DNA of 64,000 bases from a virus (taxonomy: Duplodnaviria; Heunggongvirae; Uroviricota; Caudoviricetes), in IMG/VR virus record IMGVR_UViG_2851976983_000001, positions 36,474-100,473 of that record; one strand, given 5' to 3'. The notes below the pieces were generated by a model, which worked only from the letters and a program-made list of their open reading frames with translations, made no database searches and was not told the origin of the DNA. Position 1 is the stretch's first letter; each line of letters starts with the position of its first letter. Shown here in pieces: positions 11,496-46,746 of this stretch. A program made the translations under genes and the position numbers.

Positions 11496-12269
11496 TTACT
11501 GATAGGCTTCCAGTGCGACTTTGCATAGCTCAGAACGCACGCAATCTTCGGTCGCAAACTCAATAAGGCCAACATGGGAGGAAGGTTTAAATCGCTCCAG
11601 TGCATCTTCCAGACCAGACTTAACATTGCTTGGCAGGTCGCATTGCGTCACATCTCCGTTCACAATGACGGTTACGTTCTCGCCCATACGGGTCAGGAAT
11701 ATTTTCATTTGTGACGCTGTAACGTTTTGCGCCTCATCGAGAATGACTACAGCGTTCTCGAACGTGCGCCCACGCATGTAAGCGAATGGGGCAATCTCTA
11801 CTTTGGCCACCTCTGGCTTTAAGCAATATTCAAGGAACGAGCCACCCAAACGCTTCTGTAACACGTCATAGACGGGACGGAAGAACGGAGCGAACTTCTC
11901 GCTCATGTCGCCCGGAAGGAAGCCCAGATCTTCTTCTGCTTGCAATACTGGACGCGTCACGATGATCTTCCCGACTTCCTTATCCAGCAGACGCTGCGCT
12001 GCGACGGCAGCTGCCAGGTAGGTCTTGCCGCAACCGGCTTCACCAGTGGCGAACGTCAGAGGTTTGGTATCGAGGGATATAAGATAGTGGGCCTGGGCCT
12101 CGTTACGTGCTTCGATGGGAGAGTTGTCACGTTTAGGTTTTGGTGGCAGAGCAGGGGCGGCAGCCAGCTCGTCAACGATGATTGTGTCAATTTCGTAGCC
12201 GTGGATGCGTGGTTTTGACTTCAGCGCCTGACGAGCTGCGCGACGCGCCTGTTTACGTTTGTTTCCCAT
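11496..12269 (-). CDS. phoH: PhoH-family ATPase
   Basis: Walker A GEAGCGKTYLA and conserved PhoH core; start refined to MGNKRK with AAAGGA RBS. Confidence 0.85.
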   Translation of the reverse strand: MGNKRKQARRAARQALKSKPRIHGYEIDTIIVDELAAAPALPPKPKRDNSPIEARNEAQAHYLISLDTKPLTFATGEAGCGKTYLAAAVAAQRLLDKEVGKIIVTRPVLQAEEDLGFLPGDMSEKFAPFFRPVYDVLQKRLGGSFLEYCLKPEVAKVEIAPFAYMRGRTFENAVVILDEAQNVTASQMKIFLTRMGENVTVIVNGDVTQCDLPSNVKSGLEDALERFKPSSHVGLIEFATEDCVRSELCKVALEAYQ

Positions 12270-12382
12270 ATTGAGTCCTTTCAAGTGAGTAACTGAAAGA
12301 ACTATACCGACAAATCATAGGTAAGTCATTACCTATTTTTTGTGTATTATCCCTCTACCATATAGAGGGATATCTTCATGAC

Positions 12383-13171
12383 TCACGGCAGTTTTGCTCT
12401 AATTTCGAGTAATTTTTGTGCCGTGACGCTGATGTCATAAGCCAGATCTTGGGTTTGGTTAATGATTCCGTAAAAGCGCTCAACCTCTTCAGGATAAAAA
12501 CGTCTGATATGGGGGATGTCGATATAATCATAATACCCAAGCCCACCCGCGGAATATTCTCTGAAAAGCGCCCAAAAGTTGTTCACTTTCCCGACCAACT
12601 CCATACGGATTGTTTCTAAAACAACATCATTGAAGCTGTAAAAGGGGTTATAGGCAATATTATCAAATGCGTAGAGTGGGTCGGTAATGTTGGTGCTTAC
12701 TTTTGCCCGGAACTGTTCGCTCTTCAGCATTTGGAGGTAGTTATAATTAAAAATATCAGTAATAGCTTTTAGAACACCGATGTCTCTATCTGAGTAATTG
12801 TTCTGGCTCACCTGGTGCGTCATTTGAAGCAGTAAAGATTGCCGAGTTTCGGCCAGTTGCTTCCAGTTTTTCAATTGCTCAACAGAATAGATAGTGTGGT
12901 CAGAGTCAATGAGTGCGCCATGTGAACGACACATCCATATACCGTTATCAATCGAGCTTCGCTGTTCTGGGGTCAAGCTAGGATCATATCTCGGCCCACC
13001 TGGCGCTGCTGCTGTAATATGGGCCGCAATACCATTATTAATCCTGCCGTTTGTATCACTGCTATCCGGGCCTACTGTTGTCTGGTTGCAGCCAAGAAAA
13101 GAGCATTTCCAGCCTACGCGTTCGGCCAGTGTTCGCTTCACCGATTGGGGAAAATCATCTCTGTTACTCAC
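12383..13171 (-). CDS. HNH endonuclease-like domain protein with uncharacterised C-terminal domain
   Basis: N-terminal WKCSFLGCN...AAHI...NGIWMCRSHGALID (Cys pairs plus His/Asn spacing of HNH nucleases); the remaining ~150 aa match nothing I recognise. Confidence 0.5.
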   Translation of the reverse strand: MSNRDDFPQSVKRTLAERVGWKCSFLGCNQTTVGPDSSDTNGRINNGIAAHITAAAPGGPRYDPSLTPEQRSSIDNGIWMCRSHGALIDSDHTIYSVEQLKNWKQLAETRQSLLLQMTHQVSQNNYSDRDIGVLKAITDIFNYNYLQMLKSEQFRAKVSTNITDPLYAFDNIAYNPFYSFNDVVLETIRMELVGKVNNFWALFREYSAGGLGYYDYIDIPHIRRFYPEEVERFYGIINQTQDLAYDISVTAQKLLEIRAKLP

Positions 13172-13211
13172 GATTAACCTCGCTGTGTTTAAACAATCTT
13201 ATGGTTATTTG

Positions 13212-13781
13212 TTAGTGGCGTTTGTCTTCTTCCAGACGCGCCGTTTTTAAGTGTTTGTCGGTAAAGGTAAGTAACGTTACGCCCTCATCTTTATTCATGA
13301 AACCGGCACCGTTTATCATCATGATCAGGCGCTCTTTGCCGCGGAATACCTCATAATACTTTCCCGCTGCACATGACATTGTCTTGGCGCACTCCAACCC
13401 ATTCAAGGCTGTTTCATCAAATACCTGATCTTTAGTGGCAACCGGCTTCCCGTATTCTTTCGTAAGCATTTCGTCGAGCTGCATGAAGGTATACTTGCCG
13501 ACGTTGGTAGTCATGCTTGACTCAACTTTGCCATCAATCAATCCACCGGTGGTATGCGGTTCCTTACCTTCAGCCGCTGCTTTATCGAACAAAGCGAAGG
13601 CTTCGATGTTTGGGGTTCGTTTTTCAAAGTGGGTTTTGTACTGGCTCTCAAGGGAGTTTTTGTCCTGACCGATTAGTGTAATTTTATCGACTTCAGACTC
13701 GTTGCATCCCGTGAGTGTGAACGCGATTATTAGAGAGGTGAGAATAGTGAAGTTGCGCTTTTTCATTGATGCTATCTCCAT
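13212..13781 (-). CDS. lipoprotein
   Basis: MKKRNFTILTSLIIAFTLTGC signal peptide with LTGC lipobox. Confidence 0.6.
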   Translation of the reverse strand: MEIASMKKRNFTILTSLIIAFTLTGCNESEVDKITLIGQDKNSLESQYKTHFEKRTPNIEAFALFDKAAAEGKEPHTTGGLIDGKVESSMTTNVGKYTFMQLDEMLTKEYGKPVATKDQVFDETALNGLECAKTMSCAAGKYYEVFRGKERLIMMINGAGFMNKDEGVTLLTFTDKHLKTARLEEDKRH

Positions 13782-13844
13782 GCAAACAGCTACGTTCCTA
13801 CTACGGGTGGCACTTCAGATAAATACTTTAGACCTTGGCAGATA

Positions 13845-14573
13845 TTAACCGATGCTGTTTTGATACCTGCGAACTGCCGCATCCAATTCACTAACATATC
13901 GATTAAACTCACCCACAACATACTCCAAAAATTGATCGTCCATGAGGACACCGTTGAAGAAATTTACTGTTATACCGGCGTTTTCATTCTTTGCACGATT
14001 GATTGCGCGGATATCTCGCTTCTGTGTTTCTGACTTCTTTGCTTTTGATTTTAAAAGGTTATGATAGTTTTCGGCAACACCATCGTTGTGAGCCATGATA
14101 TTTCTGATGGCCGCCAGATGAGCAATATCCCTGATGCCTTTGCCTCCTATGGTTCCAGTAAGTCGCTTATGGCAATCTTCGACCGTTTTGAATCTTTTGT
14201 CTGTCACCTCGCCCGACAATCTATCCATGACCTCAAGGCATTCAACCATGCGGTGTTCAAATAACCCGAACATCGTCAGAAATGCCGAACGACGAGTAAG
14301 TTGTGAAATCAAGTGCTTGTATTCCGATTTGACTTCATCAGCATCGAATCCAGAACATGAACCGCAGGTAAAATACTGTACCGTATATAGATGAATTTTA
14401 CCTTCATCGTCCTCATGCTCATCGTCATACTCACCCTCCGAGACTGCGCCCGGAAGATCGGCATCACTAAGAGCGCGAGCAATGTTTACTTCAGCCTGTT
14501 CAGCTAGCATCTTCATGATTGTAATTGATTTCGTGGCTCCCCAAAGTTGTAGATTAATAAATATCTTTGCCAT
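13845..14573 (-). CDS. hypothetical protein with HEPN-like Rx4H motif
   Basis: IAHLAAIRNIMAHND contains R-x4-H; acidic N-terminal stretch; last gene upstream of the tRNA region. Confidence 0.3.
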   Translation of the reverse strand: MAKIFINLQLWGATKSITIMKMLAEQAEVNIARALSDADLPGAVSEGEYDDEHEDDEGKIHLYTVQYFTCGSCSGFDADEVKSEYKHLISQLTRRSAFLTMFGLFEHRMVECLEVMDRLSGEVTDKRFKTVEDCHKRLTGTIGGKGIRDIAHLAAIRNIMAHNDGVAENYHNLLKSKAKKSETQKRDIRAINRAKNENAGITVNFFNGVLMDDQFLEYVVGEFNRYVSELDAAVRRYQNSIG

Positions 14574-14656
14574 CTTCCTTGTTCCTTAGAGTGTTCGGAG
14601 AAGATCCAAATAGCGTCAACCAAATGCCGCTGAATTCATATGTACGACCGCAAAGC

Positions 14657-14680
14657 AAAATGGGGCCGAAGCCCCATTTT
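14657..14680. terminator. bidirectional terminator hairpin
   Basis: AAAATGGGGCCGAAGCCCCATTTT; same GGGGCCGAAGCCCC core as 15141..15164. Confidence 0.55.
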
Positions 14681-14835
14681 ATTCAAACTATTTATTCTGC
14701 TGGCACCTAAACAAAAGGTAAAGCATAAGCAGAGATAGGACTTGGCTATGCAGAGGAGCCTGAATAAATGTCGTTAGCATTTCACTCATCGAAAGATACC
14801 TCTATTCGATTAATCAAATGCGCTACGAGACCAAA

Positions 14836-14864
14836 TTGACGTAGATTCACCTTAGTTGTAAGAT
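14836..14864 (+). promoter_or_regulatory. strong sigma70 promoter candidate on the plus strand
   Basis: -35 TTGACG (14836..14841), 17-nt spacer, -10 TAAGAT (14859..14864). Confidence 0.45.
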
Positions 14865-14870
14865 GAACTT

Positions 14871-14969
14871 GTATTGACGTATCCGTTCTCGTAACGCGAT
14901 ATGAGGTTTTTAACGATGGCAGTCGTTAAAAACCAGAAAGAACTCCCGTTCGGGGGTTCTTTTTTTTTT
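14871..14969 (+). ncRNA. candidate ~100-nt small RNA
   Basis: Downstream of the promoter above; two hairpins (14905..14934 with an 11-bp stem; 14939..14960) followed by a T9 tract; no plausible ORF. Confidence 0.3.
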
Positions 14970-15140
14970 GCGTAGTAGTCACTTTCCCATTGCACTTCCC
15001 TCTCGTTGTATGAAAACTACGGATTGTAGCATTTCCAATAGCTTGTTTATAATTTGCATAGCATAGCACAACCCACATGCGCATGTAGGACTGACAGGAA
15101 TTGCCCCACAACGTATAAAAAAGTTTGTGATTATCAAAGA

Positions 15141-15164
15141 AAAAAGGGGCCGAAGCCCCTTTGG
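15141..15164. terminator. bidirectional terminator hairpin
   Basis: AAAAAGGGGCCGAAGCCCCTTTGG. Confidence 0.5.
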
Positions 15165-15236
15165 ATTATGGTTTGCGCTAAAAAAGTGTTGCTACGATGC
15201 TAAGAAGCAATGGTTAAGAACGTCTGCCGTGTCTAT

Positions 15237-15319
15237 CACAGCGCTGAACGGTTTGGCGACATTTGCGGAGTCTTTCCGTTCGGACGGTGGTGGCGAACTC
15301 CAAACCGTTCAGCGCTGTG
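15237..15319. repeat. long perfect inverted repeat (20-bp arms) abutting the tRNA 3' end
   Basis: CACAGCGCTGAACGGTTTGG ... CCAAACCGTTCAGCGCTGTG with ~43-nt loop. Confidence 0.6.
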
Positions 15320-15320
15320 T

Positions 15321-15395
15321 TGGCGATGGTGGGTGGACTCGAACCACCGACCAGTTGATTAACAGTCAACCGCTCTACCACTGAGCTACACCATC
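15321..15395 (-). tRNA. tRNA-Asn (anticodon GUU)
   Basis: Minus-strand sequence GATGGTG-TA-GCTC-AGTGGTA-GAGC-G-GTTGA-CTGTTAA-TCAAC-TGGTC-GGTGG-TTCGAGT-CCACC-CACCATC-G-CCA folds as a cloverleaf with encoded CCA; 75 nt. Confidence 0.85.
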
Positions 15396-15834
15396 ATATT
15401 TCGCGGCGGTACTTGTTGATGGACAACCAGGCAACCAGGAACTTTCCCGCAACTTGCACTTTACGTTAGTGCCAGACGAGGCTTGTGGCGCGCTCACATA
15501 GAGCAAAGATCTGGAATCCTTCTCGGTGGTTGACGGCCGCCAGATTCTTCGATCTTATTGGATGTATGGAATCATCCATGTTGTGAAACCAGGGGCTACA
15601 TAGGCAACAATGATTTCACCAGAGGGTTAAAGAATCCTGCTTTCACAACGTTGAGGCCGCTGAACCGATTTATGTTCGACCCAACATATTGATCAGTCAC
15701 TACAGCTCTGTGGAATCACCTGTATGATTAAAAGAAAAACAGTGACCTCAACGTTGTGCGCTGGCTAACCAAGCCAGCCGGGTTACGTCGCCGCTTTTAA
15801 CCCAAGATTAAACGACATAAGTAATGGAAATGAC

Positions 15835-15949
15835 GTAACAGGATGGACGGTCAGCTGGCTGAAACCGGGATGATGGAATGGAATGAGGAAACCAACCGTC
15901 CATCCTGTTACTTCATCGAATAGGGCATGGGTGGTGCAACATGCCCTAT
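15835..15949. repeat. two consecutive strong hairpins in an ORF-free region
   Basis: 16-bp perfect stem GTAACAGGATGGACGG/CCGTCCATCCTGTTAC (15835..15911) then 10-bp stem ATAGGGCATG/CATGCCCTAT (15920..15949). Confidence 0.5.
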
Positions 15950-16143
15950 CCTGCGTTCTGAAATCACACTCGCTCAGTGTGTCCCATTTCGGTGACGAGG
16001 CTGGAAACTGACCTCGCTGGTGTTTGGCTTCTTAGGCTACTGCCAGGTACGTATCTTCGTTTGCAGTTATATTTAACGTTCAAACAGTCGCATCTCAACG
16101 AAAACAAGTGAATCTTATACGTATTAAATAAGTAAGTAAATGC

Positions 16144-16449
16144 TTATTTTTCTGTGGCTCGTTCAGTTGCTATCTTTTTGATCAAACTCACCTTCTGTTC
16201 CGGCGTTCTCGTGATGATGGCCGTAAAACGCTTCGCATGAATAGTGATAGTTTCGTTCTCCTTCAGTTCACCGTAGTGAGTCTCCAGCAGAGAACCCAGG
16301 CGCCACAGGCCGTCGTCTATGCGTTTATGGCTGGCAAATCTGATCAGCAGTAGCTTTACGATTAACTGACCAATGTAAAAGGCATATCCGAAGCCGGCCG
16401 CCACAAGGTAGGTTACCAGCCACCAGTAGAAAGAGGTCAAATTGCTCAT
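16144..16449 (-). CDS. hypothetical membrane protein
   Basis: N-terminal hydrophobic helix FYWWLVTYLVAAGFGYAFYIGQLIV; start overlaps the upstream stop. Confidence 0.5.
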   Translation of the reverse strand: MSNLTSFYWWLVTYLVAAGFGYAFYIGQLIVKLLLIRFASHKRIDDGLWRLGSLLETHYGELKENETITIHAKRFTAIITRTPEQKVSLIKKIATERATEK

Positions 16450-16598
16450 TTCCGCACTCCCGTCTCGTGAACAACCCGATACAGACGCTTACCGATGCGA
16501 AGCGTTTTGGTTTCCAGTTCCTGCCTGACCATATCGCGACAGATACTGAAGCCGAGGGCCACGCCCCCAGCAAAAGATAATAGGATGTATGGAATCAT
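16446..16598 (-). CDS. small membrane protein (50 aa) missing from the ORF track
   Basis: Hand translation MIPYILLSFAGGVALGFSICRDMVRQELETKTLRIGKRLYRVVHETGVRK; start and stop overlap both neighbours. Confidence 0.4.
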   Translation of the reverse strand: MIPYILLSFAGGVALGFSICRDMVRQELETKTLRIGKRLYRVVHETGVRK

Positions 16599-16810
16599 CA
16601 GAACGCCCCCGCCTCAGTCAATTGCTGCAACAGTGAGTGTCCTTTTTCAGTGAGTTGATAGTTCTCCACACATCCCTTTGGCGAAACGTTAGCGACAAGA
16701 TTCATACGTTCCAGTTTGGCGCGGGTCTTTGGCTTCCAGTTGGAATAGAACTCTTTCCATTGGCTGATTTCACGCAGAGTTTCCTTCTCCCGTTTACTTA
16801 ACATGATCAT
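16598..16810 (-). CDS. hypothetical protein
   Basis: 70-aa ORF translationally coupled to both neighbours. Confidence 0.5.
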   Translation of the reverse strand: MIMLSKREKETLREISQWKEFYSNWKPKTRAKLERMNLVANVSPKGCVENYQLTEKGHSLLQQLTEAGAF

Positions 16811-16970
16811 CCTTAATCTCCTTCAGTGTGTACGTGATATCTACAATGCGGTTAATGCGGCCGCGCCTCTGCATGACACCGGCTTTTACGTAATCGTTGA
16901 TGCAGCTGGACGTAACCAGACTGCCGATAACAATGCCGACGACCAAAAATACAATCATCCAGCCGAGCAT
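16794..16970 (-). CDS. small membrane protein (58 aa) missing from the ORF track
   Basis: Hand translation MLGWMIVFLVVGIVIGSLVTSSCINDYVKAGVMQRRGRINRIVDITYTLKEIKDDHVK; ATG overlaps the ligase stop. Confidence 0.4.
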   Translation of the reverse strand: MLGWMIVFLVVGIVIGSLVTSSCINDYVKAGVMQRRGRINRIVDITYTLKEIKDDHVK

Positions 16971-18292
16971 CAGTCTTTATCTCCAATACGGTCTTCGGTA
17001 TCTCGCAGACATTTCGGCCACTTCAGACGTGGGTGGCGTAAGCTACCGTCCGGCGTTTTCTCATGGCAGTGAACCTCGACGATGCGTCCACGATACTTCT
17101 CCTGATTGTTCCAGATCTCATCCAGGTACTTATGCTTGATACCGCTGGCACGAACGATGACGCCGTTCTCCAGACGAATCACTATCTTGCCCAGCGTATG
17201 CGCAAAGCCAGAGTCCGGGTCGCCTGGCTCGAAGTCGATGATTTCACCGTCTTCGGAATCCTCGTCTTTCAACTTCCACCAGCTGCGGGTACGCTTGAAC
17301 TCGTAAACAGAATCCGGATCTTTGCCCATCTCCCCCTCTTCGTTCTCGTCCAGGCGCTTCATGAAGCGTTCGATAAAGTCTCCATGGCTATGGATGATGT
17401 AGAACGGATGCAGGTGGATATCTTGCGCGTAATCTTCCCCGCAAGTGTTGCGGAACAACGCCACCAGCATAGCCAGGCGCTCTTTCAGCTTCATGCCGGT
17501 CTTCAGGTACTCTTTGCTTTTTGCCTGAGCACGCCACTCCGGTAAGAAGAAATCGAAGATGTGGTAAACGGCACCAATGGCTTTCACGTTCTTCTTGCGA
17601 AGCGCCGATACGGACTGGTTGAACGTACCTGCAGTACCCTCACCATCGAAGAAGATGTGCTTGAACCCGGAGAGTCTGCCTCGCTCCAGCATGGCCGGTT
17701 TAAGGTGATCGAGTGACGTAATCGGATTTCCGGTACGCGTCAGGAAGTTCACCTCTTCCTCGTCAACGATGACTTCGCAGATAACCCGGAGACCATCGAG
17801 TTTGAGGCTGCCGATCATTGGCCACTTGGCCTTTGGATTTGGTTTAAATGGGTATTTGTCGCCTTTCTCCTTGTACGGAGACGCCAGCTGTACCTCAAAC
17901 TTCGGAATTGGGTTTTCGAACACCTTGTTGCACAGGCTGATGCCGACGCCGGCTTTCGGATCTTTCAGCAGGAAGCGACGAAACACGTCCTGCCCGTCAG
18001 CGCACATTGAGGCAACGAGTGATTCGACAGCAGTAATGGCCGCGTTCCCGGTCAGTTCGCGCGCCGCCAGCTTCTCCAGCAGCTCGACTACCTTCTGGTC
18101 GATGGGTACGGAAGTATCGAGTGGCTCGACCACTTTGTACTTCTTCACACCGAATCGAATGAATGGGTTGAGCATTAGCGAGACCATGCTCTGCTCAAAT
18201 TCATCAAGGTTGGCCAGCGCCTCTTTTTTGGCGTTGGTTCCCATCGTTTTTATGGCATCCAGCTTGTGCTTTAGGGCGATCAGTTTTTCCAT
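16970..18292 (-). CDS. ATP-dependent DNA ligase
   Basis: Adenylation motif I SLKLDGLR (KxDGxR); 440 aa. Confidence 0.85.
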   Translation of the reverse strand: MEKLIALKHKLDAIKTMGTNAKKEALANLDEFEQSMVSLMLNPFIRFGVKKYKVVEPLDTSVPIDQKVVELLEKLAARELTGNAAITAVESLVASMCADGQDVFRRFLLKDPKAGVGISLCNKVFENPIPKFEVQLASPYKEKGDKYPFKPNPKAKWPMIGSLKLDGLRVICEVIVDEEEVNFLTRTGNPITSLDHLKPAMLERGRLSGFKHIFFDGEGTAGTFNQSVSALRKKNVKAIGAVYHIFDFFLPEWRAQAKSKEYLKTGMKLKERLAMLVALFRNTCGEDYAQDIHLHPFYIIHSHGDFIERFMKRLDENEEGEMGKDPDSVYEFKRTRSWWKLKDEDSEDGEIIDFEPGDPDSGFAHTLGKIVIRLENGVIVRASGIKHKYLDEIWNNQEKYRGRIVEVHCHEKTPDGSLRHPRLKWPKCLRDTEDRIGDKD

Positions 18293-30559: not shown

Positions 30560-32023
30560 AAATATATCCTTATACTTTTAAGCAGGGGCTGGTTTAGTTC
30601 CAGCCCCGATTGAAGTTGTTTATTCTTTAGGTGAATTTAACTTCGTTTCAAGCTCCTCAACCCTTTTGGTCAATTGCTGAATATGATGAATGAGTGGTAC
30701 AACCAAACGCTCATACATCACCCCTTCAGCGACCATACCATTTGAGGAAATATCTTCTGGAGAATCATTATTTGTTGGTTCACGCCAATGGACATATTGC
30801 GGGGCAATCTCACCTACCTCTTCAGCAATAAGGCCGTAATACCCCCAATCCTTTCGGTCACCTCGACAAATTGAACGATACCAAACAGGTCTTAATGACA
30901 AAAGTTCATCAGCATATCGATCTTGTAATGTTTCAATATCCTTTTTATAGCGCCTTGAAGATGTTGAACGCCAAACTGTATTGATACCTGGGTTTGGATC
31001 AATGTACATATTGGCACCGCTAGTAGTTGTGCCAATATCCCATATAGCAAACCCTCCACTACCGCCTGATTTGACAACCAGTGTTTCAGCAATAATATCC
31101 AGGTTGCCACTATAGCCTGTCAGTGATGATCTGCTTGCATAGGAACTTAGAAGGTTTGTTACCTCTGTTTTCGTGTAAGCATTAAGGTTAGCCGCAGTCA
31201 AAGTAATATCGGCAGAGCCATCAAACGCCACACCAGCAATTTTCCTTGCTGTCTGCAATTTTGTGGCTGTTGCGGCATTACCAGTAGTATTCTGATTACC
31301 GGTTGTATTCACACCAGGGATTGAATCCTTAGCAGTATATACCTGCGCCCACGCTGACCATGCCGCATCTGTGGTATCTCTTCGTGAGCGAATGAAAACT
31401 GGCGCATGTGCACCGCTCGTACCACTCCAGCCAATAAGCAACTCGCCCTCACCAGCAGCACTCGCACCTTTCATGTGCAATACGTTGCCATACGTGGTCG
31501 GATAGCTATTGTTGTACGCCTCGTACATTTGAATGCCAGCAGTGCCTTGAGTAGAGCCGCTTAATGCCGTAACTCGGCCACGAGATACCAGTGTATTAAT
31601 GTTGATATCGCCTGAGCCATCAAACTTAACACCATTGATGTTTCTCGCTGTTTGCAACTTCGTAGCTGTTGAAGCATTACCGTTCAAACTACCATTTACG
31701 CCACCAGTCACATTTAGTCCATTACCAATTGATACCGCACCGCTGGTATTATTAATTGTAATAGGTCGCAAACCGTTCCATGAACCTAATGTGTCTCCTG
31801 ATGCTGTTAGCATGAAATATGTGTTCGATCCATCATTACGGATAAAGAACCCAAAGCTACCGTAAGCAATGCGGAAACCATTTGCATATTTTGAAATGAT
31901 CTCACCAGAAGACGTTAATCCGCCAGTTAACGCTCCTCCAGATAGTGGTAAAGCTCCGACATCAGCCGCAGTAGGCTTGTTTTTAGTGTTATACGCTCTG
32001 CGCCATCCTGGTTGGATTTGCCC

Positions 32024-32929
32024 CTATATTTCCAGACATCTGTTATCACTTAACCCATTACAAGCCCGCTGCCGCAGATATTCCCGTGGCGAGCGATAAC
32101 CCAGCGCACTATGCGGATGCCATTCGTTATAATGCTCGAACGCCTCTGCAAGGTTCTTTGCTGCCGTTAACCCGTCTGGTTTGGGCATGATACTGATGTA
32201 GTCACGCTTTATCGTTTTCACGAAGCTCTCTGCTATTCCGTTACTCTCCGGACTCCGCACCGCCGTGTTCTTCGGTTCAAGTCCCAACATCCGGGCGAAC
32301 TGGCGTGTTTCATTAGCCCGGTAGCATGAACCATTATCCGTCAGCCACTCCACTGGAGACGACGGAAGATCGTTGCCGAAGCGGCGTTCCACCGCTCCCA
32401 GCATGACGTCCTGTACTGTTTCACTGTTGAAGCCGCCGGTAGTCACCGCCCAGTGCAGTGCCTCACGATCACAGCAGTCCAGCGCGAACGTGACACGCAG
32501 TCTCTCTCCGTTATCACAGCAGAACTCGAACCCGTCAGAGCACCATCGCTGATTGCTTTCTTTCACGGCCACTCTGCCTGTATGTGCCCGTTTCGATGGC
32601 GGTACAGCAGGTTTTCGCTCAAGCAACAGCGCATTCTGGCGCATGATCCGGTAAACACGTTTGGCATTGATCGCAGGCATACCATCAAGTTCTGCCTGTC
32701 TGCGAAGCAGCGCCCATACCCGACGATAACCATACGTGGGCAGCTCTCCGATAACATGGTGTATACGGAGAAGCACATCCGTATCATCAGTGTGACGACT
32801 GCGGCGGCCATCCATCCAGTCATCGGTTCGTCTGAGAATGACGTGCAACTGCGCACGCGACACCCGGAGACAACGGCTGACTAAGCTTACTCCCCATCCC
32901 CGGGCAATAAGGGCGCGTGCGCTATCCAC
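32024..32929 (-). CDS. insD: IS2 transposase OrfB
   Basis: 301 aa, recognised as IS2 InsD. Confidence 0.9.
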
Positions 32930-33252
32930 TTTTTTGCCCGTCCATATTCAACGGCTTCTTTGAGGAGTTCATTTTCCATCGTTTTCTTGCCGAGCAGGCG
33001 CTGGAGTTCTTTAATCTGCTTCATGGCGGCAGCAAGTTCAGAGGCAGGAACAACCTGTTCTCCGGCGGCGACAGCAGTAAGACTTCCTTCCTGGTATTGC
33101 TTACGCCAGAGAAATAACTGGCTGGCTGCTACACCATGTTGCCGGGCAACGAGGGAGACCGTCATCCCCGGTTCAAAGCTCTGCTGAACAATTGCGATCT
33201 TTTCCTGTGTGGTACGCCGTCTGCGTTTCTCCGGCCCTAAGACATCAATCAT
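32887..33252 (-). CDS. insC: IS2 OrfA (HTH)
   Basis: [41 protein letters not shown]...; ORF-track start trimmed to the IS2 orfA ATG. Confidence 0.9.
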
Positions 33253-36134
33253 CTGTTCTCCAATGACTAGTCTAAAAACTAGTATTAAGACTATCACTTA
33301 TTTAAGTGATACTGGTTGTCTGGAGATTCAGGGGGCCAGTCTACTGGTGAATAGCTCGTCCCGTTAAATACATAGATAAACTCCGCATTAGTGAGAGCAC
33401 CAGAGACACTCGTCGTTGTGGCCGTTGTTATACGGATCGTATAATTGTTTGAGCTACTACCGTTATTAAATACCTCTATAACAGCTCCTGCTAATGGAAT
33501 AACGCCACAACCAGTTTCACTATTTGGTATGGTTGCACTATTGGCATAGGCCCACGCACATCGAGCAATCCATGACTTTGTGTTAAATGCTCCATTATTT
33601 TGCAATAACGTCACTAACTGTGCTGTTGTTATTGCTCCGCCATTACTTCCTGTAGTTAACCAACCAGTAGGAGATGCCGGGCAACCTATATTTGCTGGCG
33701 ACAAGGAAATATTTGCCGAGCCGTCAAACGACACCCCATTGATAGTACGCGCAGTCTGCAACTTCGTAGCAGTAGCCGCGTTGCCCGTTGTATTCTGATT
33801 ACCAGTCGTATTAACACCTGGCAAATTAATATTCGCAGTACCATCAAAGCTCACGCCGCCGATAGTTCTTGCCGTCTGAAGTTTTGTAGCAGTTGCAGCA
33901 TTACCAGTGGTGTTCTGATTACCCGTAGTATTTACACCTGGAAGGTTGATATTTGCAGAACCGTCGAAACCAACTCCACCGATAGATCTTGCCGTCTGCA
34001 ATTTCGTTGCTGTACTTGCATTACCATTTAATGTTCCGGTGATCCCACCAGTAACAGACAACGGACCTGAAACTGTTCCTCCGGTTGTTGGCAGTGCTCC
34101 AATATCTAACGGCGTCGGTTTCTGATGTGTGCTATACATCGTATAAACAACACCATCGGTAACGCTGGAAGGCTTACTAGCTGAATATGTTGGCGATGTA
34201 TAAATAGAAACTGTCGCATTTGCAGTACAATCCCAATGGATATTTACACGAGTCGCATAATTGCCAATCTCAACGTAAATATCATATGTATCGCCGGATG
34301 TGTTGATCCAGGCGAAATTCGTTAATCCGACAGCTGTACGCTTCCACAAAGCACCTGTAATCCCTTTGGGGTTTCCATTGCCTGCTCGTAGAACCAGTTC
34401 TGAAATGCCTGCCTGATGTGGGGAGCCGACGTTGTAACCAGCGCCACCAATCAATGCGATGTAAACGATGGAACTCGCTTGTGGCATTGTAACAGTAGCC
34501 AGTTTGAACCACCCGGCCCCGCCAGAGAAAGACATCGTTATTGAATTTAAAGTACCAATATCTTTCGGCGTTAATGTGATATCCGCAGTCAGTGCTTTCC
34601 CGTTAATTTTTCGGTTAGATGGCACCCTGCTGTTCGCATTGTCATTGACTACTTTAACTGCTTTTGGCGTTGCGGCCAGCGATTCACTGGTGCTGTCGAC
34701 AGCACTGCTAAGTTTCACAACACCTTTAGTTGTAAGGCTTGCGTCTTCCATCGCAACTGCACCGGCAATCTCTTCAGCACGATCAGCAGCAGCTTCCGCA
34801 CGGGTCGCAGCGGATTCAGCAGCAGTTTTGCTCTGAGATGCTGCCGTCGCACTGCCTGCCGCCTCTGTTGCTTTCGTGGATGCCGTCGTGGCGCTGCCCT
34901 TCGCTGCTGACGCCTGTCTGGTCGCCTCATCTTTTGAAGCAGACGCAGATGATGCCGATGACGCTGCCGAACTGGCGGACGATGCGGCTGCCGTTTTTGA
35001 GGATTCTGCACGGGTTTCCGACGCTTTCGCGTTCGTTTCGGATGTCTTCGCTGCGGAAGCAGACCTCGCTGCTGCGCTGGCCTGTTCAGTGGCTTCGCCA
35101 GCCTTCGTTGTGGCTGTTGAAGCAGACGATGCGGCACTTTCTGCCGATTTTCCGGCGGCGGTGGCACTGGCTGAGGCCTGCCCGGCACTTGTTGACGCGG
35201 CACTGGCAGACGACGCAGCCGCTGTTTTTGAGCCTGCCGCAGCCGAGGCGCTCTGTCCCGCTGCCGTTTCAGAAGACCTGGCGTTCGTCTCGGACGTTTT
35301 TGCCGCCTTCGCGGAATTTCCTGCCGCCGTTGCCGAGGAAGCGGCATTACTGGCGCTCGAGGCTGCGCTCGTTTCTGATGATTTCGCTGCCTCTTTTGAG
35401 GCCGCCGCATCCCGGGCTGAGGTGGCAGCTTCTGACGCCTTCGTGGTCGCGGTGGATGCAGAAGTGGCTGCAGATTTTTGTGACGCTGCAGCATTCGTTT
35501 CAGACGTTTTCGCGGCACCGGCACTGGTGGCCGCCGCGCTTTTTGAGGACTCTGCAGCGGATGCACTTTGAGACGCTTGAGAGGCTTTTTCTCCAGCGGT
35601 ATTGGCGCTTTCTGCTGCTGCGGCAGCACTGGCCGCCGCCTCACGAGCTTTGTCGCCAGCAGCATCAATCGCGTCAGTGTTATTTTTATACCACTCAACG
35701 TTTTCGTTGTGCTCGTTGACGATCTGCATTAGCGGCTTAACGGCCACTTCTGTACCGTCTTCACGCTCGATTGTCACCTCATCCAGAGCAGTCAACCAAC
35801 TGCGCATGGACTTGGAATCAGCCGACATACGCGACATTAGTGCTGTAAAGCGCGCGCTAAACTGTGTTAAGTCGCCTTCATAGGTCGTAATGATTCGGCA
35901 CGGAACTTCAGACTGAGTTTCGCCGGTATAAGGTTCTGAGAGAACAATGTTCGTATCACTGGTTACGCGCTTGATCTCATACAGCTTATTGTCGGGGCCA
36001 ATGACGATCATCCCCGGCAACACACCATTAGCTGTTACGTTCCAGGCTGTCCCTGCCCCAACCAGAGTATTGCTGCCCTGTGTAAATGTGATAGTACCTT
36101 CCCTGTACCACATGTTGAATATGCTCCTTGATTT

Positions 36135-36155
36135 GGTGGGCTATCCTTGCCCACC
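36135..36155. promoter_or_regulatory. hairpin between the J-like stop and the tail-fibre start
   Basis: GGTGGGC-TATCCTT-GCCCACC; preceded on the minus strand by an ATAAGTA-type palindrome (36156..36176). Confidence 0.4.
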
Positions 36156-39100
36156 ATTAAGTATGTACCTACTTATTTTTACCTATATAAATATTTTTTT
36201 CTACATTACAGAAGGCCAATTCTTACTCGTAGGACGTTGTTATCGTCATAAACGTCAATCCGCTGACCATTTATGACCAGTCGCCCATTACCCCCGCTAT
36301 TACCGTTGATCTCAAGCGTTCCATTTTTGCCGAACCGCCATCCAGATCTACCGCTAACAAAATTGGTAGATTGCAGATCGCCTACTTTTGCATTGGTGAT
36401 TGTGCCATCCTTGATATACGCACCATTCATATAGGCGATACTGTTTTCGATAACAAATGGCGTGGTGATCTTCCCGTTAACAGAGTTGACCAAACCAAAC
36501 CTGTCAGCCTGCACCAAAAACTGAGAAAGGCCAGTGGTGTCGATACCAAGCGCAATACCAGCAACATACTTCTGCCCTCCGCTCGTTGAAGTCTCCATTT
36601 TCAACGTCCACGCGGTTGACACTTTTTTGTTGGTATCAGCAATAGCTGTTGCCTGCTGTTGAATTGTCGCGGTATTTCCATCCACCTCTGCTTTCAGAGT
36701 GTCGATTCGCCCACTTAGAGCATTATCTGCCTGCGTTCTCGCTGTCGTTTCAGTTGTGACCGCCGCAGAAATGTTGGCTGCTGTTTGAGACTCTAAGTTT
36801 GTGATTTGAGTCGCCAATGCCGCATCTTGCTCTGTACGCGTTTTCGTTTCGGTTGCTACAGCCGCTTTAATATCCTCTTTGTATTGAGAGGTCAGCTTGG
36901 TGATCTGAGACGACAACGCCGAGTCAGCATCAGTTCGAGCCTGCGTTTCAACTGCAACGGCCGCACTAATATCTTTCGCTGTCTGTGCTTTTAAACTTGA
37001 AACCTCTTTTGTTAAAGCGGTATCACCATCAGCACGAGCCGTTGTTTCTCTGGCAAGAGATGCCTCGAGATCATTAGCTTTTGCTGTAAGAGACGAAATC
37101 TGAGTGGACAATGCACTATCGGCATCAGTCCTTGCCTTTGTCTCTACAGCAACCGCTGCGGCAATATCAGTTCCGGTTTGTGCTCGCAGGCTGTTAATTT
37201 CTCGTGAGAGCGCCTGGTCAGCACTTGCTCTGGTCTCCTGCTCCTGAGTGATGGCAGCGGATATATCACCGTCAACCTTTGACTGAAGCTGGTTTATTTG
37301 TTTGGCTAACGCAGAGTCCCCGCTTGCTCGGGCCTCCTGCTCACTACGTATTGCAGCAGAAATATCATCATCAACCTTTGCCTGAAGTTGGGTGATCTGG
37401 CTTGCCAGAGCCGAATCTTCCGTTGCTCGGGCTTCTTGCTCTTCCTTAATAGCTGCGACGATATCGTTGCTTACTTTCGACTCAAGCTGAGTGATCTGTG
37501 TCGTCAGAGCTTCATCGGCAGATGTGCGAGCCTCCTGCTCTGTACTAATCGCCGCGCTGATATCTCCTTCAAACTTAGATTGCAGCTGAGTGACACGCTT
37601 TGCCAACGCTTCATCGCCATCGGCACGAGCGGTGGACTCTTCCAGAATACTGGCCTTAATGTCTTCGCCAATTTCTACGCGAATTTCCTCAACCTTCGTG
37701 GCCATTGCAGACATATCATCAGCAAAGGTTTTCTGTGTTGTTGCGATCTTCGCGTTATTGACCATCTGCTTGTGCTGGTCTTCATCTTGACGAAGAGCCA
37801 GGTCAATATTTGTTTTGGCTAACGCCTCAATGTTCGTAGTCAGTTCTGCACTGGCACGATCGACCTCTGCAACCGTCTTTTTCATTTCTTCAACGGCAGC
37901 GGAGCTTTCCTCTACCGTTGACTGCAACACTTCCAGTTGTTTAGCGTTTGCAGCATCGCCTTCAACACGAGCCTCGCTTTCCTTAGCAATAAGAGCCGCC
38001 GCTTCATCTCTTGCAGCCTTTATTGCCTCGACTGTATTAGCGAGAGCTTTATCGTGTTCAGATACGGTGTTTTCGATTTCAACAATTGCAGCATCAGTAG
38101 CATCAATTTTTTCAAACGCTTCATTGACCTTGTCGATCGTTGCCGAAACCTCACCTTTAAGCTCGGTTTGTGCGTTCTCCAAAGCATCGCTACGCTCGTT
38201 GAATTTTATTTCAAAACCCGCGAGGTTATCGCTGAACTGCTTATCTAATTCAGCTATATCTTCCTTAACGTCGTTTACCGACCCCTCCAAAGATTCGACG
38301 CTCTGGTTGATATGCTCATTTAACTCGTCAACTGCTTCTTGAGAGGCTTTGCTGTTGATGTCCTCAAGCAGAGCCTGACCAAGCTCGGAAGATGTAATTT
38401 TGCCAGCCAGGAACGACAGTACATCGCGAGTTGTCGCCTCTGTACCCAAGTTTGAGTTCGGAGGGCTTAACATACCTCGCTTGTTCGATGCTCGAACCCA
38501 GTAATACCACGTTTCGCTATCCCCAAGACCAGCATGTGTAAAGGTGGTGCTTGCAGACTCTGCGATCAGTTTCGCCGTATCCAGATTGTTGGTCTGGGAT
38601 GCGTAAACATTAATGTGATCAAGGTCTACCGAATCTGGATTAACCCAATTCAGTATCACATTACGATAGTCTCCAACGGCCGTTAATGACGTTGGGGCAT
38701 CCGGCGGTGTCATTGTGCCCAACACCTGATAAACGGTACTGATAATCTCTGTTTTTTTACCGTTGAATGAAACCGCATACAGTTGGAAGTCGTAGTGTCC
38801 ATTCTCCGCGACATTAACGATTTCGTATTGCTCTTCGGTTACACGCGCCGATTGCCAGTTCGATACATTGTTTTCATCAGAACGTCGCCAACTGATCCAA
38901 TACTCTGGAGATTTTCCTTCCCATGTTGCAGTCAGTTTTACTGACAGGTTGCCCGGGCTTGAGAGATAAGTCCCTTCAGTGATTTGCAGATTAGATGGCT
39001 TGGAGTAAGTTGGGTCCAATACCGTCGTATTCTGCGGGATCAGCGTTGCGCCATTGTCGATTGCCTCATATTTAGACGGATTGTTCTCAACAGCGGTGAT

Positions 39101-39229
39101 GTCAAAGCTACCCGGCGTTTCCCCCTGCGCGATGTTAACGATGCGAACGCGCATAGGTTCGAGATCTGGTTCTGTAATTGTCCAGACACCGTTCAAAACA
39201 GGCGTTTCCGCTGACGACAGGGCTTTTGA

Positions 39230-41174
<1,945 letters not shown>

Positions 41175-41199
41175 ACTTCCTGAGAAAGAGGTAAACAGG

Positions 41200-41522
41200 A
41201 TGACTAAAAATACTCGTTTTTCCCCCGAAGTCCGTCAACGGGCAGTCCGTATGGTTCTGGAAAGTCAGGATGAATATGACTCACAGTGGGCGGCAATTTG
41301 TTCCATTGCCCCAAAGATTGGCTGTACGCCGGAGACTCTGCGTGTCTGGGTTCGCCAGCATGAGCGGGATACCGGGGGCGGTGATGGTGGGCTCACCAGC
41401 GCTGAACGTCAGCGTCTGAAAGAGCTGGAACGTGAAAATCGTGAACTGCGCCGCAGTAACGATATCCTTCGCCAGGCTTCCGCTTATTTTGCGAAGGCGG
41501 AGTTCGACCGCCTCTGGAAGAA

Positions 41523-41526
<4 letters not shown>
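41200..41526 (+). CDS. IS3-family transposase OrfA
   Basis: [57 protein letters not shown] (HTH + leucine zipper). Confidence 0.9.
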
Positions 41527-42551
<1,025 letters not shown>

Positions 42552-44219
42552 CGATTTTGCCTTCCTGATTCAATATCCGAATAAAGCTGCCACTTTTAGC
42601 TAACGACACAGGCGCATCGAGAGTGATGCTGTTTTTGGTAAACTCCACAATTCGACCGGAGTTACGTTTACCTGCACGATATTTGTTCTGAATCAGAACG
42701 GTTTCACCAGGCATCAGAAATGAGGCGTCTAAGCCGGCAGTAAATGTAATTACATCCGACTCCATTCTGGCGGTATACAAAAGCCACAAACCAACTCGGT
42801 GAGCCTGGCCTCGGCTTGTACATCCAAATGCTACGACTTCTGTTTTACGCTCACCATAACGGCGCATTGCGTCCTGATCTTCAACGTATTCGATGTTTTG
42901 CTTATAACCGTCCTCCTTGTTGTTGTAGGTTACGAGCGCAACGGATGGGCGATCTTTACGCGCAGAACCTTTATAGGTAAACAGTCCATCTTTGACGTTG
43001 GAGTTGGTAAACATCATTACCGGATCTGATGGGCTATCCTGCATGATGTTAACCATGCCACCAGCCCAAAACACCATGCCGCGGAATGCACCGGCAATAT
43101 CCTGAATTAATCGGTATGCGTCTTGTCGACTGGTGATCTGCGTATTGATTGCAAAGCGTTTCTCTTTACCCCCAAAGCCATCATCGACCTCTTCGTCACA
43201 ATATCGACCAATCTGGTAGAGCTGGCCGAGGTCAATCATGGATTCCGACACAAATTGCCCAAGACCATACCGAGTATTGGTAAGCAAATCGTAGAGAATC
43301 CACGCAGGGTTTGAAGAAGACAACAGCTTAAAAGTACCGTCCCATACGCCGACATAAGTATTGGTGTATTCGTTGTAGTTTGACGGTACTCGGATTTTGA
43401 TACCGCGCACCAAATACGAACGGGAAGGGATTGTGCTACCAAACTGCTCTGAATTGACCTTCAAGCCAACAAGAGCAGAGTTAGGGTAGTTCATTGGCGT
43501 GTCGACAATCTCACCGATGGAATCAACCCATGTGTCGTTGTAGAGGTACTGGCTACTATTATCATCTGTAAGACGAATCACCCTAACCTTGTATGCACGA
43601 CCAGGCTTAGGCAGTTTCAGCTCATAGCTACGGTAATACACGCCGGTTTTCTTTGCCGTTAGCGTGATATCAACGCTTTTCTCACCTTCTGCCACTACAT
43701 CAGAAAATGTTGCGTCTGCGTTGGCGATCTGGAATTTGTACTTCACCGTAGTGCCATTTGTATCGCCAGAGCTTTTATCAACGCTACGTAAAGAGGGGAA
43801 TTTCATGATGACACGAACGCGATCAGCTTCATCGTTATCGATTGAAACCGTAACGTCGTGTGTTTTTTTAAGCTGAATATTTACGGACTTAGGCGTTTCG
43901 ACAAAATCAAAACCAGCCATTGGCGTCTGATCTTGTGAGCCGTCACGAAAATCCCATGTAATACCGCTGAAGTTGGAAGAGCCATCTTCATTCAAGATCG
44001 GTAAATCGTCGATGAAGATCGACTTTGCGCCATTTACCAGGCCACCGATAACCCCCTCGCCAAGAAGGTCGAGGATGGCTGCCATAGCACGAGAATTGAC
44101 AGTATCATCAGCTTCAACCGGGGTACGGCTGGAGCTTTTACTTTTCTTGCCACCAGCACCGGCAATAAGAAGCGGTAATTTTTTCTTCTTGAACTGTTCC
44201 ATGTCCAAAAAATCCTTGA

Positions 44220-44810
44220 TTACATAAGCTGGTCGATGGTGATAGAAGAACTCACGACCTGTGAGCCAACTAAAATTTCCTCGCCATAGATAAGCTGTAC
44301 AGGGTTCCCCTGGTTTGTTGTGTTTTGAGGTCCATCAAAGTAATAAGAGTTCGAGTTATCCGCCTGCCTCACACTTTCGTTAGTGGCTTGCGGAGATATG
44401 ATTTGCGCTATACCGCCCATCATCAGTGACAAACCGAGAGGCGCAAGAGCGGGCACCCATATCGAGGCAACCATTAATACTGCTCCAACAACCGTCTGAA
44501 ACCATCCAAAAGCAGATCCACCACTTCCTCGCGGAACAGGGGTAATGCGGATTTTTGCAATATTGTCAGACTGCCCCATCATCTGATATTCACTCTCGTC
44601 CACAGACCACTTGTGGCCCTGTTTATTGGTGATCTGGATGTGGTATCTGTCATAGGTTTTGATATTGCGCTTCATCCATGCTTTAAACCCAGGCTTGTTG
44701 GCCTCAATTAAATCCAGAGCCTGTTTTGTATTACGCACCTTTAGATGCCAGTGGCGGCCAAAATGTTTGGCCATAGGGCCGCCAAGCTGCACATGAACTA
44801 ACTCAGACAC
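44220..44810 (-). CDS. tail assembly protein, lambda gpI-like
   Basis: 196 aa; hydrophobic central segment; position between K-like and J-like genes. Confidence 0.65.
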   Translation of the reverse strand: MSELVHVQLGGPMAKHFGRHWHLKVRNTKQALDLIEANKPGFKAWMKRNIKTYDRYHIQITNKQGHKWSVDESEYQMMGQSDNIAKIRITPVPRGSGGSAFGWFQTVVGAVLMVASIWVPALAPLGLSLMMGGIAQIISPQATNESVRQADNSNSYYFDGPQNTTNQGNPVQLIYGEEILVGSQVVSSSITIDQLM

Positions 44811-46286: not shown

Positions 46287-46368
46287 TGTTTCATCCTTGA
46301 AATAAGTAGGCGCTGACATCCTGTCAGCGCCACAATGATAGTAAATTAGTACTTACTTATCCAGATAC

Positions 46369-46704
46369 TTAAGCCTCAAATACTTGTCTGAATGTAGCAG
46401 TTAAGACACAGTACCCCTGATATCGCTTGACCGTATGACTGTCACATACAACTACAATCTGCTTGCCTCTTGGATTAACCCAATAGAACGATTCAACGCC
46501 TGATCGCTCAGTCAGGAAGTCATCGATTGCATTAATTTCGTTGTATGATCTGGTAAAGGTTAACGACCATTCTTCTTTAATACGATTAAGACCTTGAGCC
46601 TGTCGCTGCTCGTAGTCATCACCAAAATTAAGTACCGTTACATTCGGTTTTACGCTTTTTTCAGATTCGTAATCTGGATACCAATTAAACGTTTGTCTTT
46701 CCAT
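46369..46704 (-). CDS. minor tail protein, lambda gpM-like
   Basis: 111 aa; position and size match lambda M. Confidence 0.65.
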   Translation of the reverse strand: MERQTFNWYPDYESEKSVKPNVTVLNFGDDYEQRQAQGLNRIKEEWSLTFTRSYNEINAIDDFLTERSGVESFYWVNPRGKQIVVVCDSHTVKRYQGYCVLTATFRQVFEA

Positions 46705-46746
46705 CTCACATCCTTGTGAGACTGCCCCGGTCGGGGCAGTCGATAG

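Follow-up and report, generated by a model that had tools for sequence, protein, structure and literature searches.

Does a small RNA gene in the non-coding DNA of a phage-plasmid act alone, or does it belong to a larger genetic unit? The question is raised by a stretch of 64,000 nucleotides (the window; positions 36,474 to 100,473 of the IMG/VR virus record IMGVR_UViG_2851976983_000001), for which an initial annotation had proposed a discrete plus-strand small RNA (sRNA) with its own promoter and terminator, located next to a tRNA gene in DNA without a credible open reading frame (ORF). The element is an SSU5/pHCM2-type phage-plasmid. Positions 14600-15400 are 100% identical to plasmid p503829_100 of E. 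coli strain 503829 (NZ_CP025870.1; window position = NZ_CP025870.1 position - 8192) and 95% identical to the Salmonella Typhi plasmid pHCM2. We describe here that the sRNA gene has a partner. Comparative sequence analysis makes it very probable that the sRNA is a cis-antisense RNA paired with a conserved gene for a small membrane peptide, and we consider it probable, with clearly less certainty, that the two form a functional type I toxin-antitoxin (TA) or addiction module of Ldr/Rdl and Hok/Sok layout.

The basic outline of the sRNA gene was correctly recognized. The promoter TTGACG-17-TAAGAT is present at 14836-14864 as claimed, the terminator is found where it had been placed, with a run of ten T residues instead of the nine reported, and transcription is indeed directed against the flanks, because all neighbouring annotated genes and the tRNA-Asn gene are on the minus strand. 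RNAfold predicts a strongly structured molecule for 14871-14969 (-42 kcal/mol, z = -6.9) that consists of a 7-nt 5' tail and three hairpins, including the terminator with its 13-bp stem, where two hairpins had been described. None of 200 shuffled sequences is as stable and the reverse complement has a weaker fold (-30.7 kcal/mol). Promoter and terminator as bare motifs are not above chance: the region 12000-18000 contains 5 promoter-like sites compared to 8.7 +/- 3.4 in shuffles, and 7 terminator-like sites compared to 5.9 +/- 2.8. The unit is credible above chance because it is conserved and covaries. The ~81 plasmids in which BLAST detects it come from Klebsiella, Salmonella, Citrobacter and E. 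coli and represent a single phage-plasmid type; phage SSU5 and the majority of E. coli relatives lack it. Klebsiella plasmids are ~73% identical over the wider region, and within them 14775-14900 is 92-100% identical compared to 76-92% in adjacent coding sequence (CDS). Among nine distinct variants, including IMG/VR and metagenome contigs, the three helices are kept in 95.6% of cells. Compensatory double changes affect five pairs of hairpin 2, a number that is not reached by any of 500 shuffles and compares to 0-3 in slid controls. Helices 1 and 3 vary solely by G-U/A-U and U-A/U-G exchanges, which indicates a plus-strand RNA, since the same exchanges would be A-C mismatches on the opposite strand. 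Translation across the unit was considered and rejected: a 47-aa ORF on the minus strand (14852-14995) and a 24-aa ORF on the plus strand are both broken in relatives by insertions and deletions that affect the T run and hairpin 2, as is every ORF crossing the unit. Thus, judged by conservation, compensatory changes, the strand bias of wobble exchanges and the destruction of crossing ORFs, the proposal of a discrete, non-coding plus-strand RNA gene with its own promoter and intrinsic terminator holds. An Rfam scan of 14550-16200 (gathering thresholds, and E up to 10) revealed no family that matches the sRNA; weak matches to Phe_leader and ctRNA_p42d were rejected, as they reflect the hairpin-plus-terminator shape only. 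There is no second copy of the sRNA in the window.

The absence of a credible ORF stands for the sRNA unit (14836-14969) but not for the DNA around it. A 33-codon ORF begins on the opposite strand 81 nt from the sRNA start and 47 nt upstream of the sRNA -35 element. Every phage-plasmid relative that covers the whole ORF has 33 codons without an in-frame stop, with the exception of a frameshifted Citrobacter freundii allele, and this length is kept despite only 52-72% nucleotide identity in the ORF stretch. The ratio of nonsynonymous to synonymous substitution rates (dN/dS) is ~0.1-0.3 where calculable, with a value of 0.58 in a single pair of near-identical sequences. Substitutions accumulate preferentially at third codon positions (12/6/23 in the comparison of the window with the K. 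oxytoca type, for example), and the other two frames are full of stops. By these comparative signatures the ORF is coding and under purifying selection. The encoded peptide has a hydrophobic core at residues 13-27 and a basic C-terminus, and AlphaFold (single sequence) predicts one helix from residue 3 to 31 with a mean pLDDT score of 76.5. A Shine-Dalgarno sequence (SD) AGAGG at 14803 to 14799 precedes the ATG by 8-9 nt and is enclosed in a predicted hairpin of the mRNA (14788-14810), which is nearly invariant in 9 sequences; SD/anti-SD hairpins of unrelated sequence are found in three of four other lineages (L148, L150 and L151, see below). The underlying inverted repeat ATCGAA-N11-TTCGAT was also considered as operator of a regulator and rejected, because it is better explained by the SD hairpin. 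A second such repeat, ATCGAA-N12-TTCGAT, is located at 13584-13607 inside a minus-strand CDS, so that the window has two sites where 0.04 are expected.

The ORF is unannotated in all matched records listed, including all RefSeq E. coli hits and the RefSeq record of the window, and the pHCM2 variant of the peptide is found in GenBank only as 'hypothetical/uncharacterised protein'. A phmmer search over 1.84 billion representative proteins returned a single relative, and a scan of the genome collection with the 16-mer TCTCGYAACGCGATRT gave chance matches only. The exceptional allele is found on the C. freundii plasmid NZ_OW849258.1 (L146; locus 701-784) and is common to several 110-kb C. freundii plasmids. 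A natural +1 frameshift leaves a product of 27 aa (MSEMFTIFIQAPLLSQVLTVLALLPMG) that is stripped of the basic tail, and the sRNA gene next to it is intact. Such decay is common for toxin genes, and the allele fits the decay of a toxin gene, for which it is weak evidence. All features are listed in Table 1.

Table 1. Coordinates of the sRNA gene, the facing ORF and associated predicted elements in the window.
Feature	Position	Strand	Details
sRNA promoter	14836..14864	+	-35 TTGACG 14836-14841, 17-nt spacer, -10 TAAGAT 14859-14864; 9/12 consensus matches
sRNA, ~99 nt	14871..14969	+	predicted start
sRNA 5' tail	14871-14877	+	
sRNA hairpin 1	14878-14903	+	loop CUCGU
sRNA hairpin 2	14905-14934	+	
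sRNA terminator hairpin	14935-14964	+	
T10 run	14960-14969	+	
33-codon ORF, candidate type I toxin	14688..14789	minus	ATG 14789-14787, TAG 14690-14688; encodes MSEMLTTFIQAPLHSQVLSLLMLYLLFRCQQNK
SD hairpin of the ORF mRNA	14788..14810	minus	AUCGAA-UAGAGGUAUCU-UUCGAU; encloses SD AGAGG, pairs AU of AUG
Intrinsic terminator after the ORF	14646..14680	minus	stem 14657-14680, U-rich tail toward 14646
Candidate promoter of the ORF mRNA	15060..15070	minus	extended -10 TGTGCTATGCT (15070->15060), possible -35 CCTACA 15089->15084; predicted start ~15053
Second extended -10 candidate	15023..15031	minus	TGCTACAAT; predicted start ~15016
Long leader hairpin, predicted	14820..14898	minus	antisense of sRNA nt 5-28 pairs with DNA just upstream of the sRNA -35
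Three-codon mini-ORF	14979..14990	minus	ATGGGAAAGTGA; strong, purine-rich SD-like GAGGGAAG at 15002->14995; in the putative leader
tRNA-Asn	15321-15395	minus	

The sRNA gene and the ORF recur together. Searches with the peptides by tblastn revealed distant copies, and in total eight lineages carry the pair: four phage-plasmid types, 1.9-kb ColE1 plasmids (the small ColE1-type plasmid L148), an E. coli IncR/IncY plasmid (L149) and two Enterobacter plasmids (L150 and L151). ColE1-type plasmids of 1.9-3.6 kb from Salmonella, E. coli, E. fergusonii and Klebsiella encode a peptide of 33 aa (MAELLTAFIKAPLISQVLTIILCLIFVVHSLLN), and the homologues have 36 aa in the IncR/IncY plasmid and 32 and 36 aa in the Enterobacter plasmids. 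Six residues are invariant across ten variants (M1, F8, A11, P12, Q16 and L18). Every lineage shows the same set of a divergent TTGACG-17-TAnnAT promoter, the sRNA, an ORF of 32-36 codons and, straight after the stop codon, a terminator hairpin that differs in sequence from lineage to lineage. The promoter hexamers are kept in all eight with differing spacers (-10 variants are TATGAT, TAAAAT, TAACAT and TAATAT), and sRNA start and ATG are 81, 81, 81, 81, 77, 78, 81 and 81 nt apart. The sRNAs have 92-110 nt and largely different sequences, with a 5' tail and three hairpins, and the fold is the same in six divergent homologues. A covariance model built from the sRNAs finds the distant homologues weakly; since it also scores the genuine RNA I of the small plasmid with 19.7 bits, such hits are no proof of homology. 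The idea of an orphan sRNA beside a tRNA in ORF-free DNA can therefore not be upheld, because the sRNA is always paired with a divergent ORF at 77-81 nt. The tRNA is indeed adjacent in the window, but this is incidental, as the module also occurs in plasmids without a nearby tRNA.

The distribution of the copies is that of a plasmid trait. The small-plasmid branch is present in 53 of 5,426 complete E. coli genomes, where it is without exception plasmid-borne and has no annotation in the records listed; no copy in these genomes is chromosomal, and a search of the phage collection revealed none. On the 1.9-kb plasmid there are very few features besides the module; among them is a separate RNA I (Rfam, 92.6 bits) ~300 bp away, and the module is therefore not the control circuit of that replicon. 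It is dispensable, being missing in related, replication-competent phage-plasmids. This genomic context fits a role in plasmid maintenance. In the vicinity of three distant copies, 100-600 bp away, type II TA genes are found (HigA/RelE in L149, Phd/RelE in L150 and HicA in L151), which hints at TA or defence islands on these plasmids.

Whether the sRNA can act on its neighbour depends on the extent of the mRNA. No complementarity between the sRNA and the ORF region was found outside an overlap of transcripts, so the ORF mRNA must read through the sRNA gene to be its antisense target, and the overlap is the crux of the matter. Three lines of evidence suggest such an overlap. Firstly, an extended -10 element of the form TGTGnTATnAT is kept amid divergent flanks in all phage-plasmid lineages, reading TGTGATATTAT, TGTGATATCAT and TGTGTTATGAT in the types other than that of the window. 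Elements at the same place are TGTGATATAAT in the small ColE1-type plasmid, TGTGATATGAT in the IncR/IncY plasmid and TGGTA(G/A)ACT in the Enterobacter plasmids, so that TGnTAnnnT is found on the ORF strand in every lineage, 21-96 nt upstream of the antisense T run. By our own estimate such a match is expected in ~9% of 100-nt stretches, and its presence in four or five independent lineages is therefore unlikely by chance. The second candidate, TGCTACAAT, is found in the window and in the pHCM2, Citrobacter and K. oxytoca types and not in the K. pneumoniae or K. variicola types. An alternative promoter between sRNA start and ORF was seen neither in the promoter scan nor on inspection. Secondly, a long hairpin is predicted in the putative leader, and it supports an ORF-strand transcript because only the ORF strand would transcribe both arms together. 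It is more stable on this strand by 4-11 kcal/mol in six of six lineages (z -2.9 to -5.3 vs -0.5 to -2.4) and recurs in distant lineages with unrelated sequences. Thirdly, the complement of the sRNA 5' tail, located in the internal loop GUCAAUAC of this hairpin, is predicted to be exposed, with an unpaired probability of 0.52-0.77 compared to an mRNA mean of 0.33-0.41 (eight of eight lineages).

We propose that the ~445-bp module (roughly 14646-15090) would work in the following way. An mRNA of ~400 nt, reaching from ~15053 to ~14650 on the minus strand, would start from the extended -10 near 15060-15070, and its leader of ~264 nt would comprise the full antisense of the sRNA gene, followed by the SD hairpin, the 33-codon ORF and the terminator. 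From the opposite strand, the promoter at 14836-14864 would yield the ~99-nt structured RNA that is fully complementary to this leader. Pairing with the exposed leader loop could be nucleated by the single-stranded 5' tail and by hairpin 1, whose loop CUCG is of YUNR type, and the duplex could spread over up to 99 bp. The mRNA would then be cleaved in an RNase III-type decay, or be barred from refolding or processing to a translatable form, and the peptide would not be made as long as the plasmid is present. Upon plasmid loss the short-lived sRNA would disappear, and translation of the longer-lived mRNA would then yield a membrane peptide that kills or arrests the cell; such post-segregational killing would stabilise the phage-plasmid. 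Antisense pairing that leads to cleavage or to blocked rearrangement or processing is established for hok/sok, ldr/rdl and related systems (see PMC8594479 and PMC2887945). Type I systems have been defined by an mRNA of 150-400 nt and a peptide of 20-60 aa (PMC8594479; PMC2887945), and in Hok/Sok and Ldr/Rdl the antisense RNA is located inside the mRNA and 5' of the ORF (PMC8594479; PMC2887945). The locus described here is in line with this: the peptide is hydrophobic and shorter than 60 aa, the predicted ~400-nt mRNA is within the given range, and the putative leader is structured with a sequestered SD (the SD/AUG hairpin, with analogues in L148, L150 and L151). The sRNA gene is antisense between the conserved extended -10 and the ORF in eight of eight lineages, and its RNA would be complementary to the toxin mRNA if that mRNA starts at the 5' end placed by motif.

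Several observations weigh against this reading. The mRNA start is deduced from motifs, and a start between sRNA promoter and ORF would leave zero complementarity. Among close phage-plasmid relatives the leader helices show wobble changes only, with no double-compensatory covariation beyond shuffled controls, and the structural argument for the leader therefore rests on the strand asymmetry and on the distant lineages. In the window lineage UUUCUGGUUUUU follows the antisense of the sRNA terminator and could partly terminate a long mRNA; the terminator scan did not call this site a terminator. No leader ORF like mok or ldrX is conserved, and a mok-like one was rejected for this reason. The mini-ORF is kept as ATGGG(A/G)(A/C)AGT(G/A)A in phage-plasmid lineages only (ATG GGA AAG TGA; in K. 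variicola ATG GGA CAG TAA), and Alifold pairs its region with the 3' part of the ORF, a pairing that is statistically unsupported. The basic C-terminal tail of the peptide is missing in the branches outside the phage-plasmids. The peptide matches no family, and thus no toxin family, in Pfam, NCBIfam, PHROGs or PADLOC, where LdrA as control matches its Pfam family with E = 1.7e-24. In the literature we found no transcript, toxicity or rescue data on the module.

The closest rival keeps the RNA mechanism and gives up the addiction. The peptide would then be an antisense-regulated small membrane protein that is no toxin and serves superinfection exclusion, signalling or the modulation of a transporter. 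All structural evidence fits such a protein equally well, many small membrane proteins lack toxicity, the C-terminal tail varies between the branches, and the module is dispensable in related phage-plasmids. We nevertheless regard it as unlikely, because the tight repression in several layers that the locus appears to encode (a long structured leader, a sequestered SD and a full-length antisense RNA) is typical of toxic products. Also the restriction of all copies in complete E. coli genomes to plasmids, the type II TA neighbours in three lineages and the frameshifted ORF beside an intact sRNA gene in one lineage speak for a toxin.

Even less probable is that the sRNA is an orphan, moron-like and trans-acting RNA of the Hfq type, which pairs via its 5' region with mRNAs of the host or the element and is linked to the ORF merely by position. 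Its own promoter, the strong intrinsic terminator with a long U tail and the A-rich stretch before it would suit such an RNA, as would the fact that the 5' third is its most conserved part. The target search covered the plasmid, and a trans action on host mRNAs might also exist beside the cis role. The search revealed no convincing, outstanding or conserved target in the 100-kb plasmid. A scan of 104 translation-initiation regions, corrected for accessibility, gave nothing better than -7.3 kcal/mol, and the best interactions of this kind reach only -5 to -7 kcal/mol. The best non-self duplex site (50151-50195) was rejected because it is antisense to a tape-measure gene, and a duplex of -46.6 kcal/mol with the start of a 101-aa gene (16144-16449) was rejected as the background tail of ~10,000 windows; in K. 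variicola this duplex is weaker and shifted in register, and it is thus not kept in Klebsiella. Moreover, a trans regulator that works on its own would hardly be expected to keep a fixed distance of 77-81 nt to the ORF in eight plasmid contexts that are otherwise unrelated and include a 1.9-kb plasmid.

A role in replication or copy number control, as a ColE1 RNA I-type or other counter-transcribed RNA with the opposite transcript as primer or leader, is very improbable. The architecture of a 5' tail and three stem-loops is RNA I-like, as the cross-match of the covariance model illustrates, and the weak Rfam match of the sRNA terminator to ctRNA_p42d points in the same direction. However, the window sRNA gives no hit to the Rfam family RNAI (RF00106), a separate, high-scoring RNA I is located close to the module on the small plasmid, the module of the phage-plasmid is ~22 kb away from the RepB replicon and absent in replication-competent relatives, and the opposite strand is a coding ORF under purifying selection. 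Chance promoter hexamers before a bidirectional terminator, without a functional RNA, would agree with regional motif counts that are no higher than in shuffled sequence, but are effectively refuted by the conservation above that of neighbouring CDS, the compensatory changes and the hexamers kept in eight lineages with different spacers.

We return to the proposed addiction module and to the element that carries it. The phage-plasmid encodes a RepB replicon, a ParB-family partition gene, a set of DNA-replication genes and siphovirus structural genes, several of which are disrupted by insertion sequences (IS). Tail tip fibre, host specificity protein J and a tail protein are annotated as pseudogenes (window ~31800-44200; record 40003-52391), with insertions of IS2, IS100 and an IS3-family element in the tail genes, and the region includes an ALIL pseudoknot at 41481-41597. 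Because its tail genes are interrupted, the p503829_100 copy is probably no longer functional as a phage and persists in plasmid form. The sRNA unit lies within a 1.57-kb stretch without annotated genes (14574-16143) that also contains the tRNA-Asn gene; a replication origin with iterons in this stretch was considered and rejected, as it shows no iterons and no AT-rich or skew signal. A 33-nt direct repeat (14651-14683 and 15135-15167, 85% identical), each copy with the terminator hairpin GGGGCCGAAGCCCC, brackets the module as a unit of 484 bp, and homology to a related E. coli plasmid without the module begins at 15138. This suggests that the module has been gained or lost by recombination between the terminator copies.

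Further structured elements surround the module. Positions 15237-15319 on the minus strand, immediately 3' of tRNA-Asn, form an inverted repeat whose 20-bp arms match perfectly and enclose a loop of 43 nt. Its stem is kept in Klebsiella relatives via two compensatory double changes (GCGCUGAACGG/CCGUUCAGCGC to GCGUUGAGCGG/CCGCUCAACGC), the loop is unrelated there, and the distal arm is absent in SSU5. The repeat may represent a processed RNA, an RNase III site or an element acting at the DNA level. A second long hairpin at 15830-15916 has 22-nt arms of 95% complementarity, again exactly 43 nt apart, and is kept in all relatives including SSU5, with a variable loop. At 562-980 on the plus strand, ahead of a plasmid-borne cold-shock gene annotated as cspG, a full-length Rfam cspA thermoregulator (185.7 bits) is found, by its sequence match a host-type RNA thermosensor on a phage-plasmid.

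Type I TA loci are routinely missed in annotation, as their ORFs are tiny and the partner is an RNA. The module described here went unannotated in the matched records listed, among them pHCM2, phage-plasmids of clinical Klebsiella and Citrobacter and the records of ~1% of complete E. coli genomes. We found no description of it in the libraries and papers searched; it might be listed among uncharacterised candidates in specialised databases. The view that it represents an undescribed TA family of enterobacterial plasmids, in which both the peptide (a single predicted helix with the motif 'MxE..F.(Q/K)AP..(S/T)Q.L(T/S)') and the ~100-nt antisense RNA with three hairpins are new, and which aids persistence and might contribute to abortive infection or to the decision between plasmid state and lytic growth, is in our judgement evenly balanced between right and wrong. 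By sequence, the candidate toxin and antitoxin are unconnected to Hok, Ldr, TisB, Ibs, ShoB, Zor or DinQ, and the family is apparently unrecognised in the records of S. Typhi pHCM2 and of Klebsiella and Citrobacter phage-plasmids. If it is a true addiction module, it helps to explain the persistence of SSU5/pHCM2-type elements, including copies with IS-broken tail genes, and likewise that of 1.9-kb cryptic ColE1 plasmids. With 445 bp it is a compact and testable system, for which eight natural variants already point to the RNA elements that matter.

How does the module compare with known systems? The benchmark was ldrA/rdlA of E. coli K-12, a unit with a repeat period of 535 bp, in which the toxin leader contains a divergent sRNA gene whose start is 48 nt away from the toxin ATG. 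Ldr/Rdl shares with the module a hydrophobic peptide of ~35 aa and a divergent sRNA of 60-100 nt located 5' of the ORF without overlapping it (PMC8594479). Gene order and orientation are identical, although the overlap of transcripts depends here on a predicted mRNA start. Both units are compact (535 bp and 484 bp), and the peptides look alike in their 'AP(I/L)L ... aromatic-R' pattern and their basic C-terminus. Differences are the distance from sRNA start to ATG (48 nt vs 81 nt), the longer sRNA with three hairpins, the lack of a conserved leader ORF and the location on plasmids instead of the chromosome. The Ldr_toxin family (PF13940) does not match the peptide at E up to 10 (LdrA control 86 bits; hhalign probability 2.7%) and Rfam rdlD (RF01813) finds nothing in 14550-16200 at E up to 10 (control RdlA-C 86-92 bits); on both sequence tests the module lies outside the Ldr/Rdl family. 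Hok/Sok of R1, like pnd, srnB and flm, is a plasmid addiction module, a role that the layout suggests here as well. Similar to the arrangement proposed here, its antisense RNA is encoded 5' of the toxin ORF and entirely within the stretch covered by the long and extensively folded toxin mRNA (the mRNA of our module being predicted), and a single-stranded antisense 5' tail is proposed to start pairing. A hok-like fold-back of the mRNA 5' end onto its 3' end is possible in the module but weakly supported, and the mini-ORF that it would involve is absent from other branches. The peptide is shorter (33 aa vs ~50), neither Hok/Gef in Pfam nor Sok in Rfam is matched, and a mok-like overlapping frame is missing, since indels in the A run and the hairpins shift the frames across the sRNA region; the module is thus no member of Hok/Sok. 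The systems tisB/istR-1, shoB/ohsC, zorO/orzO and dinQ/agrB also combine a divergent sRNA with a small hydrophobic toxin, long structured leaders and a sequestered ribosome binding site, but they rely on a short trans-complementary segment that the module does not have. ColE1 RNA I, finally, resembles the sRNA in its length of ~100 nt, its short 5' tail, its three stem-loops and its nature as an antisense RNA, complementary to the 5' part of a longer transcript from the opposite strand. In contrast, the module sRNA is encoded at a separate locus, ends in a terminator with a long U tail and faces a partner that encodes a conserved peptide, and the RNAI search places it outside the RNA I family. 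We would class the module as a new family of a kind that is already known, and not as a new principle.

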